In this document: positions 4,861-10,719 of the stretch, in pieces | How the letters are laid out: every line of letters starts with the position of its first letter | Numbering within the stretch: the stretch's first letter is position 1 | Source: Patescibacteria group bacterium | GTDB taxonomy: Bacteria; Patescibacteriota; Patescibacteriia; Patescibacteriales; UBA12465 | NCBI GenBank assembly: GCA_041664445.1 | Contig: JBAYKT010000008.1 | Span: forward strand, 1 to 57,449 | Length of the DNA stretch: 57,449 bases | Direction: 5' to 3' | Program-made: the position numbers and the translations under genes | Notes under the pieces: model-generated | Databases searched by the model: none | The model's input: the letters and a program-made list of their open reading frames with translations, nothing else | Told to the model about the DNA's origin: nothing

Positions 4861-5391
4861 ATGAAAGTAAATTTTGTCGACGCAATCGCTTGGCTTAAAG
4901 CTAAGTGGTTCACAGTGTTTTTGTTTTTGGTGATCGTAGCGCTTATCGTAATTGTGCTATTTCGCCCAGCAAACAACGGAGTTGCAACTGCAACTGATCC
5001 CAGTACATTAATTGTGCAGCCCACCACTCCCGTACCTGGAGGCAATTCAACCGGCATTAGCGCCCCCGTACCAGTTGGTACAACCACTTTCTGCATCCGT
5101 TTAGACGGGCGCGAAAATGGTCACTTACCAGCACTTATGGGTAGCGCCGCTCAAAACGCTTACGCTAATGGTCTTAACGGAAGTAACTGGTCTTTACCAG
5201 CAACATCTTCCGGATCGGAACCTTATGGCGTTATGGCTGATGGCAGAATATTTGCCAAAGTATCATTCCTGAAACAATATGGAATGTTAACTTTCGCAGA
5301 GATTAAATGCGATGCAACTGGTTGGATGGCCGAAAAAATGACAACTGCCACAATTGGCGGGGAAGAAGCACTGGTATTTCAGTTAAAATAG
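4861..5391 (+). CDS. Membrane-anchored hypothetical protein with unnamed Cys-containing domain (paralog of 6534..7289)
   Basis: N-terminal TM, Pro/Thr linker, motifs FC..DGRE, NGSNW, YGV..DG, IKC..TGWMA..MT shared with 6534..7289. Confidence 0.75.
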   Translation: MKVNFVDAIAWLKAKWFTVFLFLVIVALIVIVLFRPANNGVATATDPSTLIVQPTTPVPGGNSTGISAPVPVGTTTFCIRLDGRENGHLPALMGSAAQNAYANGLNGSNWSLPATSSGSEPYGVMADGRIFAKVSFLKQYGMLTFAEIKCDATGWMAEKMTTATIGGEEALVFQLK

Positions 5392-5423
5392 GTTATACCT
5401 ATAAGCGCTTAACTCGTCAAAAA

Positions 5424-5460
5424 GCCCTCGAACCCACCACAGTTCGGGGGTTGTTTTTTT
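5424..5460 (+). terminator. Intrinsic terminator
   Basis: CCCTCGAAC/GTTCGGGGG stem followed by T-run. Confidence 0.65.
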
Positions 5461-5477
5461 ATATATAACTTATTAAC

Positions 5478-5506
5478 TTGACAGATTTTAAAAAATAGTG
5501 TATGCT
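5478..5506 (+). promoter_or_regulatory. Sigma70 promoter for barrel-lipoprotein operon
   Basis: TTGACA-17-TATGCT. Confidence 0.7.
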
Positions 5507-5605
5507 ACCTTGATAATCTTTTGATTATTTTTATAGCTAGAATTATATATTTCCAGCTTTAAACTCTTTTAAAAACGAACATTAACAATCAAAATTAAAT
5601 AAGCA

Positions 5606-7409: not shown

Positions 7410-7431
7410 AAGTAGTTCCCAAAATAATATT

Positions 7432-8520
7432 ATGAAGATAGCCTTTATCGGACAAAAAGGAATCCCCGCTCAAAATGGAGGAGTTGACCGCCACGTAGAG
7501 AACCTGGCGATGTTTTTGGCGAAAAAAGGAGAAGACGTAATTGTTTACAACCGACAAAATTATCTACCTGAAAAAATAAATAAGTGGGAAGGCGTAACCC
7601 TGGTCCATTTACCTTACATAAATCAAAAAAATTTAGCGGCCATCACTCACAGTTTTCTGGCAACGCTTGACGCGATGAGACGGAAAGTCGATGTGATGCA
7701 TTATCACGGCATTGGTCCTTGCTTACTCGCCTGGATGCCCAGAATCTTTGCTCCTAAAATAAAAGTTGTAGCTACTTTACACAGCTTCGACTACGGCAAT
7801 GAAAAATGGAGCACCTTCGCTAAATTTATGTTAAAGCGCGGCGAAAAAAGCATGAGCCGTCACGCACATAAAATTATCGTCTTGACCGATTTGATGCATG
7901 ATTACTTTTTACAAAAATACGGACGTCAAAGCACCATCATTCCTAACGGCGCCTACATTGAAAATAGTTATGATAGTAATAATTTAGTCGGCTTTGGATT
8001 AAAGCCAAAAAAATATTTAGTCAGCATTTCCCGGATTATTAAATTAAAGGGCATCCAATATCTAATTGCCGCCCTAAAAGAACTACCGACTTACGATATT
8101 AAATTAGCAATTGTTGGCGACGGCGAATATCGCGAAGAACTGGAAAAATTGGCTGGAGATGATCCGCGGATTGTCTTTACCGGCAATCAAAGCGGTGAAG
8201 TTTTAAATCAACTATATAGCCAAGCCAAATATTTTATTCAATCTTCAGAAATGGAAGGCTTATCGATTTCTTTACTGGAAGCAATGGCTCACGGCCTGCC
8301 TTGTATCGTCAGCGATATTTCCGCGAATCAAGAAGCAACGGGTGAAACCGCTTTATACTTTAGACAAAAAGATAAAGATGATTTAAGAAACAAGTTAATT
8401 TATGCGCTTGAGCATGAAGATAAAATGACTGAATTAGGAGTTAAGGCGAAAGAACGGGCAATTAGCCTGTTCAACTGGGAGAAAATTTCCGAAGACACCC
8501 TTAAAATTTACAAAAAATAG
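7432..8520 (+). CDS. Glycosyltransferase family 4
   Basis: MKIAFIGQKGIPAQNGGVDRHVE; FIQSSEMEGLSISLLEAMA; start moved to ATG 7432 downstream of the promoters. Confidence 0.9.
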   Translation: MKIAFIGQKGIPAQNGGVDRHVENLAMFLAKKGEDVIVYNRQNYLPEKINKWEGVTLVHLPYINQKNLAAITHSFLATLDAMRRKVDVMHYHGIGPCLLAWMPRIFAPKIKVVATLHSFDYGNEKWSTFAKFMLKRGEKSMSRHAHKIIVLTDLMHDYFLQKYGRQSTIIPNGAYIENSYDSNNLVGFGLKPKKYLVSISRIIKLKGIQYLIAALKELPTYDIKLAIVGDGEYREELEKLAGDDPRIVFTGNQSGEVLNQLYSQAKYFIQSSEMEGLSISLLEAMAHGLPCIVSDISANQEATGETALYFRQKDKDDLRNKLIYALEHEDKMTELGVKAKERAISLFNWEKISEDTLKIYKK

Positions 8521-8596
8521 TTTAAGATATAGTTAAACATTTTTAGTTCGTTAAAAATTTAACCAAAAATAAGAGACCAGAGGAGGACTCTAGACA

Positions 8597-9445
8597 ATGA
8601 AAAGAATTCTAATTCTAATTATCTTTATGGCCGCTATTTTTAGCAGCTGTAATTATGTTGATTATGATCCTGGTATAGTGCCAGTACGAGCAGCAGCAGA
8701 AGGGGAATTAACCCTCAAAGCCGGAATTATGGTTAATAATTGGCAGTACGTCCAAAAAGACGTCCAAAACATTATTACTTTAGTGGCTCGCGATGGCTAC
8801 GCGGTAACGAATATTGATTGGGCAATTGAAGATTCGGTTTATACCGGCTTAACGATTACTCACGTATTCAAAACTCTCAGGGATGTCACTATCCACGCCA
8901 CGGCCACCCTGGGTGACGGTTCAAAATTAACGGCTGACTTTACAGTCACTACCGTGAAAGATATGAGCCCTTACGAACCCATAAGAGTACTTGTCATCGG
9001 CGGTGATTATTTACCCTTTAACGAAGGTTTTCAATTTGAAGGCCAAACGCGCTGGAAAGTACTAATGTTATTTTCCAAAGAACGGGTAAAAAATACCACT
9101 TTTGGCTACGGCTATTGGGGATCATTTGATGACTACAATCCGAGTTTCGATATGGAAACGTGGGGACCAGTTATCCAAATTACTACTGACGCTGAAAATT
9201 ACGTCATTAAAGATGGCTTACCAAGCCAAGCTACCGGTGAAGTCGGAAAATATTTTGCCGTTCATCTGCAACTGCTGCCGCGCGAATATCGCATGTATGC
9301 GGGCACTTTTCAGGATAAGGACAAGATGCTGTTTGCTTACGGAGATTTTGCGGGTTCTGAATTTATCAAAACCAGCAGCGCCAATCTTTGGCTGATAAGA
9401 TTTCGGCTAAACGTTGACGGCACAATCACTCCATTAGGAGATTAG
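8597..9445 (+). CDS. Lipoprotein with PKD-like domain (paralog 1)
   Basis: Lipobox IFSSC; W.IE...YTGL.ITH.F PKD-like motif; AGGAGG upstream. Confidence 0.7.
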   Translation: MKRILILIIFMAAIFSSCNYVDYDPGIVPVRAAAEGELTLKAGIMVNNWQYVQKDVQNIITLVARDGYAVTNIDWAIEDSVYTGLTITHVFKTLRDVTIHATATLGDGSKLTADFTVTTVKDMSPYEPIRVLVIGGDYLPFNEGFQFEGQTRWKVLMLFSKERVKNTTFGYGYWGSFDDYNPSFDMETWGPVIQITTDAENYVIKDGLPSQATGEVGKYFAVHLQLLPREYRMYAGTFQDKDKMLFAYGDFAGSEFIKTSSANLWLIRFRLNVDGTITPLGD

Positions 9446-9516
9446 AAAGAAATTTAATTTAATTAGTATTTGTAATTGTTTAACGAAACCTGGACCAGGT
9501 ATAGGTCATTAGAAAG

Positions 9517-10719
9517 ATGAAAAAGTTAAGAATGTTTGTTTTGATGTTGGCTGTTGCTTTAACAGCTTGTAACTATGTTGATTTTGATCCTGAGGGACAA
9601 ATCGAAACCGGTGCTCAGGAAAGTCAGCTAAAACTGAAGGGAGCCCTTATCTCTGGTGGCAACATTTACGTTCAACAGGACGTTAGCGCCGGCGTGACAT
9701 TAGAATCAACAAATGCCGCCAACCCACTAAACTCCGCCACTTGGACGATAGAAGGTAATTCTTACACGGGCCTTAACATTACCCATAAATTTTCTACCAT
9801 GGGGGATGTTGCCGTAGTTGTAACAGCTACTTTCCAAAGTGGAGCCACTGAAAGCCGAAACTTTACCGTTAAGGTTGTAAGGGACATGAGTCCCTATGAT
9901 CCAGTAAAAGTATATATTACTGGAAGCTACACGGTTTCTTCTGGAACCTGGACTGGATATACAAGGTATAACACAATTATCTTGTTATCTAAAGAAAGAT
10001 TTGCCAATAAAACCGTTTATGGATATAGCGGCAACTTTAACGACGACAATCTGTCATTATGGTTAACTGCCGCTAAAGTTCCTATCTTGGATGCTAATTA
10101 TATCATTCAAAATGGCTTACCCGCTTCTGCTGGTTCCGATGTTGGCAAATATATTGCCATAAAACGTGACTTGTTAGCTCGGAATTATTCCTTAGCCGTT
10201 GGCGAATTCGAAAAGAGTGATGGCAGTGGTAACTTTGCTTGGGCTGATTGGTCAGGATCGACTTTCGTTACCGCCTCTAAAAATGTTGGCATTATCGAAT
10301 TTAAAGTTAATCCAAACTCTACAATCACTCCACTCGGCGACGGTTATGTTGCCCCAGTAGCCTTAGTTCCCGGCATGGGAGGTGACAGTGGTGAAGGTGT
10401 TTTCCGTTATACCTTGGCAAATGGTAAATTTACCGCTTATTTCAAGCTTAACAACACCTTTAGCGCTCTTACCCCGTTTGTACAAATTAAAGATCAGGAA
10501 ACCGGCGTTTGGGGAACCCCGATCGCCTTAACCGCAGTAACAGATTTCCCAAATTATGGGAAAGCCGAATTTAACGAAGCCCAAGTGCTCAACAGCCTAA
10601 GCTCGCTTAGATTCGGCAATGTTATTGCCAACAAAACTCCTGACTTTTCACAGATGGCTAAGTCAGCCTACTACAACGAACCTTTTAAAGAGCTCCGTTT
10701 CACAATTTTGAAACAGTGA
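9517..10719 (+). CDS. Lipoprotein with PKD-like domain and extra C-terminal domain (paralog 2)
   Basis: Lipobox ALTAC; colinear with 8597..9445 through TITPLGD, then a C-terminal extension. Confidence 0.7.
   Translation: MKKLRMFVLMLAVALTACNYVDFDPEGQIETGAQESQLKLKGALISGGNIYVQQDVSAGVTLESTNAANPLNSATWTIEGNSYTGLNITHKFSTMGDVAVVVTATFQSGATESRNFTVKVVRDMSPYDPVKVYITGSYTVSSGTWTGYTRYNTIILLSKERFANKTVYGYSGNFNDDNLSLWLTAAKVPILDANYIIQNGLPASAGSDVGKYIAIKRDLLARNYSLAVGEFEKSDGSGNFAWADWSGSTFVTASKNVGIIEFKVNPNSTITPLGDGYVAPVALVPGMGGDSGEGVFRYTLANGKFTAYFKLNNTFSALTPFVQIKDQETGVWGTPIALTAVTDFPNYGKAEFNEAQVLNSLSSLRFGNVIANKTPDFSQMAKSAYYNEPFKELRFTILKQ

Follow-up and report, generated by a model that had tools for sequence, protein, structure and literature searches.

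What would a transmembrane beta-barrel of outer-membrane type do in a bacterium whose lineage is regarded as monoderm? The question is raised by contig JBAYKT010000008.1 of assembly GCA_041664445.1, from a Patescibacteria group bacterium, which was analysed over its whole length of 57,449 nucleotides (hereafter the window) and belongs to a 969-kb, 22-contig genome that is 92% complete. The nearest homologues of the window's proteins are annotated as Candidatus Falkowbacteria or Patescibacteria group, and groundwater metagenomes are the main source of DNA matching the window. Between positions 4861 and 10719 the window encodes a predicted beta-barrel, a partner lipoprotein, an upstream paralog of that partner and two further lipoproteins, a module which the original prediction had read as an acquired host-contact device with diderm-style export signals. 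The explanation that we favour, and to which we give about an even chance of being correct, is that the module represents a native trans-envelope device which a Candidatus Falkowbacteria-type Patescibacterium couples to the export or anchoring of a Wzy/Wzz glycan.

In a bolder form of this explanation, which is set out below and which we regard as doubtful, the module would amount to a previously unknown machine for trans-envelope glycan export or anchoring, and to a route of beta-barrel assembly that is independent of the beta-barrel assembly machinery (BAM). Single-chain transmembrane beta-barrels are taken to be characteristic of outer membranes and of BAM, and Patescibacteria are treated as monoderm and porin-less; a conserved barrel in this group forces one of three options, namely an outer layer that has gone unrecognised, export of the barrel into the membrane of another cell, or a new, BAM-independent use of a barrel. 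Each of these bears on the gain and loss of outer membranes and on the way in which ultra-small epibionts build their surface, and where the barrel sits is a testable question.

The predicted barrel and its stalked partner

The core of the module and its regulatory frame comprise the following features.

4861-5391, + strand: paralog of the partner with a transmembrane (TM) anchor, 176 aa, composed of an N-terminal signal anchor, a Pro/Thr linker and a C-terminal head
5423-5452, + strand: terminator-like hairpin after the 4861 gene, 11-bp stem with 6 GC pairs, then a T-run
5478-5506, + strand: sigma-70-like promoter of the barrel-partner operon, TTGACA-17-TATGCT, 10/12, a pattern match only
5606-6493, + strand: barrel, 295 aa, Sec-exported (signal peptide ...SAFA|QFRE), predicted to form a 12-stranded transmembrane-type beta-barrel
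6534-7289, + strand (open reading frame 6528/6534): partner lipoprotein, 251 aa from its ATG, MKKIIFISMLALSLGLVTSC, lipobox LVTSC
7311-7337, + strand: terminator-like hairpin ending the barrel-partner operon, 11-bp stem with 7 GC pairs, then a T-run

The open reading frames, the signal peptides and the lipoboxes LVTSC, IFSSC and ALTAC named in the original prediction are all present, and the assignment of a promoter and a terminator to a barrel-lipoprotein operon was likewise upheld. The core of the module is a two-gene operon of barrel and partner, in which the barrel stop codon and the ATG of the lipoprotein are separated by a hairpin-free gap of 40 nt. A 167-nt contig from a riverine metatranscriptome corresponds, but for 2 mismatches, to positions 6280-6446 near the 3′ end of the barrel gene, and the same run covers nothing else in 4800-7500; this match is weak evidence that the barrel gene is transcribed, as DNA carry-over is possible, and is too little to speak for transcription of the operon.

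That the 295-aa protein is a barrel was borne out by structure prediction. From a 29-sequence alignment, AlphaFold2 returned a model with a mean pLDDT of 86.8 and a pTM of 0.78 (pLDDT 84.7-86.8 over all five models), in which 12 long strands enclose no internal helix or plug, the only helices being the signal peptide and 3 C-terminal residues. The mature protein is predicted to begin at Q22, and strand 1 starts about 5 residues later, at residue 27. Comparison of this model with the PDB using Foldseek gave 159 matches at E <= 1e-3, and of the 50 best nearly all are outer-membrane barrels, alone or within a complex, headed by autotransporter beta-domains, OmpG and OpcA (E 4e-8 to 1e-5, probability ~1). 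The TM-scores to known barrels are moderate (0.45-0.55), and PgaA (4y25) ranks only 28th in the list, with a TM-score of 0.34. When the strand map was combined with the alignment, the five alternate out-facing positions next to the N/C-terminal side were found to have mean Kyte-Doolittle values of +1.0 to +2.6, beyond which the out-facing positions are polar; the in-facing ones are polar along the entire strand. Hydrophobicity served to pick the phase of each strand, which inflates the contrast between out-facing and in-facing positions and leaves the fall-off with depth unaffected. This is the pattern of a predicted membrane-embedded barrel whose far side protrudes and is polar. No Pfam or NCBIfam family was matched by the barrel at E <= 0.1, save for a spurious match to the signal peptide.

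Elsewhere in the genome, a second and divergent member of the broad barrel family is encoded at C9:51007-51915 (- strand; 302 aa, signal peptide, E 8e-15 to the broad family profile). Its context is different, as it is followed by the gene of a 263-aa multi-pass membrane protein (C9:50175-50966, - strand) and lies near a contig end.

The AlphaFold2 model of the partner lipoprotein consists of the signal sequence and lipobox, a helix (residues 38-76), a low-confidence linker rich in Thr, Lys and Pro (79-125) and an alpha/beta head spanning approximately 134-251, the head being predicted with a pLDDT of ~90. A Foldseek search against the PDB found no fold match for the head (best E 0.76), and Pfam and NCBIfam gave no family match, returning only coiled-coil noise. 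The family comprises 53 clusters of 225-275 aa, plus one 156-aa fragment, and the few clusters with a named source are labelled Patescibacteria group, Falkowbacteria or Saccharimonadales. The paralogy proposed by the original prediction was confirmed, as the products of 4861 and 6528 possess a common C-terminal domain (32% identity over 97 aa, E 7e-11).

The lipobox cysteine is nearly invariant across the partner family; in several family members, in the open reading frames which follow the barrel in divergent loci, and in the 4861 paralog, the lipobox is replaced by an uncleaved TM anchor. In at least two of the divergent loci the open reading frame after the barrel detectably contains the partner's head domain. 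This interchange of a lipid anchor with a TM helix indicates, at the level of sequence, that the partner is tethered to the cytoplasmic membrane, on its outer face. From there it would reach up to an estimated ~20 nm, given ~6 nm for the helix (39 residues at 0.15 nm each) and up to ~16 nm for the fully extended 47-residue linker, and at such an extension the head could sit beyond the wall. Both lgt (LGT, 226.5 bits, C13:28714-29472) and lspA (Peptidase_A8, 82.3 bits, C13:5409-5810), the presence of which had been put forward as a check, were found in the genome, and the lipoproteins can therefore be matured. The export signals are generic signals for Sec and signal peptidase I or signal peptidase II, which are used by monoderms too, and the label 'diderm-style' is a matter of interpretation; in view of the anchor interchange and the absence of LolA, a diderm reading of the lipoproteins is not supported.

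Gene order and the link to glycan genes

Around the core lie the genes and promoters listed here.

2461-3738, - strand: p425, an exported 425-aa protein, divergent from the Wzz-like gene
3912-4673, + strand: Wzz-like polysaccharide co-polymerase of the Gram-positive CpsC type, TIGR01006 E 1.6e-11 over residues 4-197
7348-7376 and 7381-7409, + strand: tandem sigma-70-like promoters of the GT4 gene, both TTGACA-17-TATAAT, 12/12
7429-8520, + strand: GT4-family glycosyltransferase, Glycos_transf_1 1.3e-28 and Glyco_transf_4 3.6e-20, 42-92% identity in relatives
8597-9445, + strand: short PKD-domain lipoprotein, 282 aa, ...AAIFSSC, ending at the ITPLGD domain boundary
9517-10719, + strand: long PKD-domain lipoprotein, 400 aa, ...AVALTAC
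11864-12589, + strand: WecG/TagA-family glycosyltransferase, PF03808 E 1.8e-36, forming the downstream part of the conserved glycan block and likewise placed in relatives

The placing of the module within a glycan locus holds: three GT4 genes, the CpsC-family Wzz-like gene and the WecG/TagA gene are present, and relatives add Wzy_C and DUF4012 genes upstream. The product of the Wzz-like gene also matches the Pfam families Wzz (1.8e-4) and GNVR (1.6e-3).

The barrel has 46 close homologues, and an exhaustive profile search of 1.84 billion representative proteins retrieved no more than 77 clusters at 50% identity. Of the 101 genomes of the GTDB family, 35 have a detectable copy, distributed over 8 of its 16 genera and always single, and at the scale of the phylum matches were obtained in only 2 of 401 evenly sampled genomes. 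In all 22 species-representative loci, which include that of the closed 977,025-bp Falkowbacteria chromosome CP066698.1, a pattern scan recovered one gene order as far as the contigs reach, namely p425 (reverse), the Wzz-like gene, the TM-anchored paralog (present in 18 of the 22), the barrel, the partner, GT4 and a PKD lipoprotein. The co-occurrence of barrel and partner homologues, the lack of which would have spoken against the original prediction as the lack of maturation genes would, is thus well supported, with the two genes adjoining in 19 of these loci (consecutive NCBI locus tags include HY931_01155/60, PWQ35_460/461 and ACOYL8_04345/50); of the remaining three, one is cut by a contig end (L057), one by an assembly break (L049) and one has no detectable partner (L056).

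In loci L003-L026 and L029 and in all 22 representatives, as far as their contigs extend to it, the Wzz-like gene immediately precedes the barrel or the pair of TM paralog and barrel. Even in divergent loci of the family, where barrel identity falls to 24-33%, an open reading frame of 278-303 aa with a signal peptide and a match to the barrel follows the Wzz-like gene in 10 of 12 cases, and in L027 and L028 the two genes are a few kb apart. The linkage extends to remote barrel homologues (E 1e-4 to 1e-5), represented by P0146 (LysM-LysM-linker-barrel), P0148 (linker-barrel) and P0151 (466 aa), the genes of which follow a Wzz-like gene, directly in L030 and L035 and at a distance of two genes in L034, in loci that also hold Wzy_C, GT4 and DUF4012 genes. 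The locus of P0146 (L030, protein at 5171-6802) is a glycan locus of a small genome, and the 0.7-Mb genome which encodes P0148 was found to contain no Omp85. In three remote homologues (P0142, P0146 and P0150) one or two N-terminal LysM domains and a repeat-rich linker precede the barrel, a fusion which, judged from domain content, would place the barrel next to peptidoglycan. It is chiefly from this persistent adjacency to the Wzz-like gene that a functional connection with the glycan pathway is argued.

Envelope models and competing explanations

According to the favoured explanation, the barrel would reside in a hydrophobic layer outside the wall, and the stalked partner would bridge the wall and dock onto or position the barrel. 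Barrel, partner and Wzz-like protein would together constitute the distal part of a route by which the glycan produced by the GT4, Wzy and WecG enzymes is exported or anchored, with the PKD lipoproteins as probable accessory surface proteins of the glycan locus, and assembly of the barrel would have to be BAM-independent. A bolder form of the model, which we regard as doubtful, holds that Falkowbacteria-type Patescibacteria are not simple monoderms and possess a thin hydrophobic or paracrystalline outer layer built without BAM, lipopolysaccharide (LPS) or Lol, in which a stalk-held, single-chain, 12-stranded barrel is coupled to a Gram-positive-type co-polymerase. A literature search found no published beta-barrel of such kind in Patescibacteria; new here are the anchor interchange, the stalk-plus-head model without a fold match, the PKD assignment at profile level, the hydrophobic belt and the second, divergent barrel paralog.

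The nearest functional analogy is offered by the diderm systems for polysaccharide export, in which a polysaccharide co-polymerase (PCP; Wzc/Wzz) operates with an outer-membrane polysaccharide export protein (OPX; Wza), and by the WzpX/S/B porins of Myxococcus (10.1101/2022.02.11.480155), as a co-polymerase gene lies beside a barrel gene and that of a putative spanning partner within a Wzy/GT locus. Here too a co-polymerase is encoded with the module, as the TIGR01006 match attests, and no OPX (Poly_export/Wza) domain was detected in the eight module proteins to which the scan was confined. Unlike WzpX/S/B, the window barrel has 12 predicted strands rather than 18, the co-polymerase is of the Gram-positive CpsC type, and no outer membrane is known in the lineage.

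In structural terms the best matches are the type Va autotransporter translocators (AaaA 9oqa, BrkA 3qq2, Hbp 3aeh, EspP 2qom and NalP 1uyn; E 4e-8 to 1e-5, TM-score ~0.5), which the modelled barrel resembles in its 12 strands, size, amphipathic strands and hydrophobic belt. It differs from them in possessing neither a passenger domain nor a pore-filling helix, and it has no Pfam Autotransporter match; moreover, in contrast to type Va and other BAM-assembled proteins, it occurs without BamA in the genome or family, has no C-terminal aromatic residue and belongs to an organism regarded as monoderm. Peptidoglycan-tethered outer-membrane barrels, which are joined to deeper layers by a stalk, are represented by OmpM (SLH domain and coiled-coil stalk), OmpA and intimin/invasin (LysM and a 12-stranded barrel), and the remote homologues of the window barrel share with intimin/invasin an N-terminal LysM fusion. 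In the window, however, stalk and barrel are separate proteins and the stalk is predicted to be anchored in the cytoplasmic membrane instead of the peptidoglycan; no SLH, OmpA_C or LysM domain was found in the window proteins using Pfam, and no passenger follows the barrel.

The analogy with Bacteroidota envelope kits drawn in the original prediction was not supported by comparison, the only likeness to SusC/SusD being that genes of a barrel and a lipoprotein are paired. In that system a TonB-dependent transporter with 22 strands and a plug, SusC, works with the TPR lipoprotein SusD. The window barrel, at 295 aa and 12 strands, is plug-free, its partner is made up of a helix, a linker and an unmatched alpha/beta head, and no TonB_dep_Rec, Plug or SusD match was obtained for the module proteins in Pfam. 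No homologue was found in a Bacteroidota-type locus, and the sole Bacteroidota-labelled contig displays Patescibacteria synteny. The lipoproteins resemble those matured by Lgt and LspA in monoderms, with canonical lipoboxes, lgt and lspA, an interchangeable anchor and no LolA; no difference in the anchoring mechanism is apparent, and the parts that are without known relatives are the partner head and the C-terminal regions of the PKD lipoproteins.

A number of observations weigh against the favoured explanation. Omp85/BamA (PF01103) was not found in the 92%-complete genome itself, nor in any of the 101 genomes of its GTDB family, in a search that gave matches in 7 diderms; LpxC was absent from 61 of 61 and LolA from 41 of 41 family genomes searched, and the positive controls of the BamA, LpxC and LolA searches behaved as expected. 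Judged by the markers LpxC and LolA, there is no sign in the family of a pathway for LPS or outer-membrane biogenesis, and without BamA, LpxC and LolA the barrel would have no known insertion machinery. Its C-terminus is, by sequence, without the aromatic residue usual in BAM substrates, the family consensus ending in ...QFVxGxNFMPFNIK(R/K) and the window protein in ...MPFNIRR, with basic last residues. Known polysaccharide-export barrels have 16-18 strands as opposed to the 12 predicted here (10.1101/2022.02.11.480155), all structures considered here are predictions, and fixed gene order among close relatives is a matter of co-inheritance and not proof of joint function. In cryogenic transmission electron microscopy, groundwater cells of the candidate phyla radiation (CPR) showed a surface layer with periodic structure, and an outer membrane was not observed (10.1101/2020.05.14.094862), and comparative work places the CPR within a monoderm clade that lost porins (10.1101/2021.05.31.446380).

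Some of these points would be explained if the barrel were directed at a host, as in the original prediction but with the acquired origin set aside, an explanation that we consider rather unlikely. A barrel secreted by the epibiont would then enter a Gram-negative host's outer membrane by spontaneous insertion and act there as a nutrient pore or a point of attachment, the partner would tether it to the epibiont membrane and the PKD lipoproteins would serve as adhesins. In vitro, the insertion of small barrels into bilayers can proceed without BAM, and in locus L004 the barrel (42% identity) and partner (28%) have diverged more than the cytoplasmic GT4 (67%), as would fit surface-exposed or partner-facing proteins. 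A producer devoid of BamA, LpxC and LolA, with no outer membrane in published images and with groundwater relatives that attach to Gram-negative hosts (10.1101/2020.05.14.094862), is also in keeping with such a role. The strict and deep linkage to Wzz-like and Wzy/GT4 genes is nevertheless unexpected of a host-contact factor, there is a single copy per genome without a trace of the diversification that host-range determinants typically show, and the LysM-fused relatives suggest a place beside a cell wall, which would most simply be that of the producer. Unlikely, and in our estimate a little more so, is that the barrel tiles or perforates a proteinaceous, S-layer-like or toga-like outer layer and serves permeability or anchoring without exporting glycan directly, its position in the locus reflecting joint envelope biogenesis. 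A 12-stranded barrel is ~3 nm wide. The outer layer of groundwater CPR has periodicities of 3.2-3.8 nm and 10 nm (10.1101/2020.05.14.094862), and the toga of Thermotoga is described in a published account (PMC10160955) as arrays of beta-barrels. The marked hydrophobic belt, on the other hand, needs a hydrophobic partner, be it lipid or the hydrophobic face of another protein; Thermotogae retain BamA, as seen in their use as a control in the Omp85 search; and the proteins of S-layers generally rank with those expressed most strongly.

Two further explanations concern the origin of the module and the reality of the barrel. Recent horizontal acquisition of a barrel-lipoprotein kit from a diderm, for instance from Bacteroidota, could be argued from the slightly elevated G+C content of the module genes (0.42-0.46, against a gene mean of 0.391, standard deviation 0.035) and from homologues on one contig labelled Marivirga sp. 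and on several labelled as Gammaproteobacteria. The shift in G+C is, however, within ~1-2 standard deviations, and when G+C, G+C at third codon positions (GC3) and codon usage were compared with 817 genes of the genome, the codon-usage distance of the module fell at the unremarkable 57th-90th percentile; a foreign origin was rejected on these grounds. The records titled 'Marivirga sp.' or 'uncultured Gammaproteobacteria bacterium' (L041, L042, L044-L048 and L053-L057, L045 being JBEPWY010000372.1) show full Patescibacteria module synteny; one of the mislabelled records, a 7,328-bp contig of a 0.9-Mb genome, was placed in the window's own genus, and the Marivirga-labelled contig is 3.7 kb long with a coverage of 1.56 in the record title, so that the labels look to be wrong or the contigs mis-binned. 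Every homologue whose locus was examined, from the 77 clusters among 1.84 billion proteins, is in a Patescibacteria-type locus; no SusC/SusD, TonB-dependent receptor or autotransporter match was found in Pfam; and diderm donors were rejected, as the longer remote matches are LysM-barrel or linker-barrel proteins, the three examined loci of which are Patescibacteria-type glycan loci. Ordinary composition, gene order fixed across the family and in deep homologues, and the mislabelling of the exceptional records therefore do not support the claim that the module was acquired, an explanation we find scarcely credible; the comparative sequence evidence is firmly in favour of a native, vertically inherited and lineage-restricted module. 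It is also very improbable, if somewhat less so, that the barrel is an artefact of prediction and that the 295-aa protein forms no closed barrel in a membrane, being perhaps a soluble, beta-rich wall protein. Its structure is indeed only predicted and the TM-scores are moderate, but the five models agree at high pLDDT from a 29-sequence alignment, the best 50 of the 159 PDB matches are almost all outer-membrane barrels or complexes with one, the belt profile is independent of the structure search, and there is no internal helix or plug that could fill the lumen of 12 strands.

Accessory lipoproteins and further neighbours

The short and long PKD lipoproteins downstream of GT4 share 39% identity over 284 aa (E 6e-64), and Cys18 of the long form is invariant in 12 of 12 orthologues. 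The Phe at position -3 of the lipobox IFSSC is less common, and LVTSC, IFSSC and ALTAC were all counted as agreeing with the lipobox definition, [LVI][ASTVI][GAS]C at the end of a signal peptide. Their description as PKD-like in the original prediction stands at the level of the family and not of the single sequence: the latter is sub-threshold (Pfam PKD_4, E 0.015), whereas positions 68-128 of the family profile match the PKD domains of the collagenases ColH and ColG (ColH E 6.9e-10), and 3 of 12 family members match Pfam PKD or PKD_4, with values down to 3.3e-8. Outside the PKD domain these lipoproteins gave no match to known families or structures. The additional lipoprotein announced for the distal part of the window was also found.

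53557-53892, - strand: extra lipoprotein, 111 aa, MKTIFVFVLLLMGCLLSC

Neither a family match nor a second copy in the genome in the form of a paralog was found for it, and it lies far from the module, to which nothing connects it.

The p425 protein had no Pfam or NCBIfam match. Its gene adjoins the Wzz-like gene in every related locus reaching that far, with identities of 34-94% (34% in the remote locus L030), and p425 is a further uncharacterised, fixed component of the glycan locus. For the GT4 gene, the start codon is most likely the ATG at 7429 (MKIAFIGQKG...) and not the TTG at 7309 of the longest open reading frame, because the operon terminator and two perfect promoters are situated between 7309 and 7429. 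Between the Wzz-like and 4861 genes, at 4670-4832, nested inverted repeats are present, with outer arms of 46 nt (78% complementary) and an inner pair of 22 nt placed 6 nt apart, and these may be the terminator of the Wzz-like gene.

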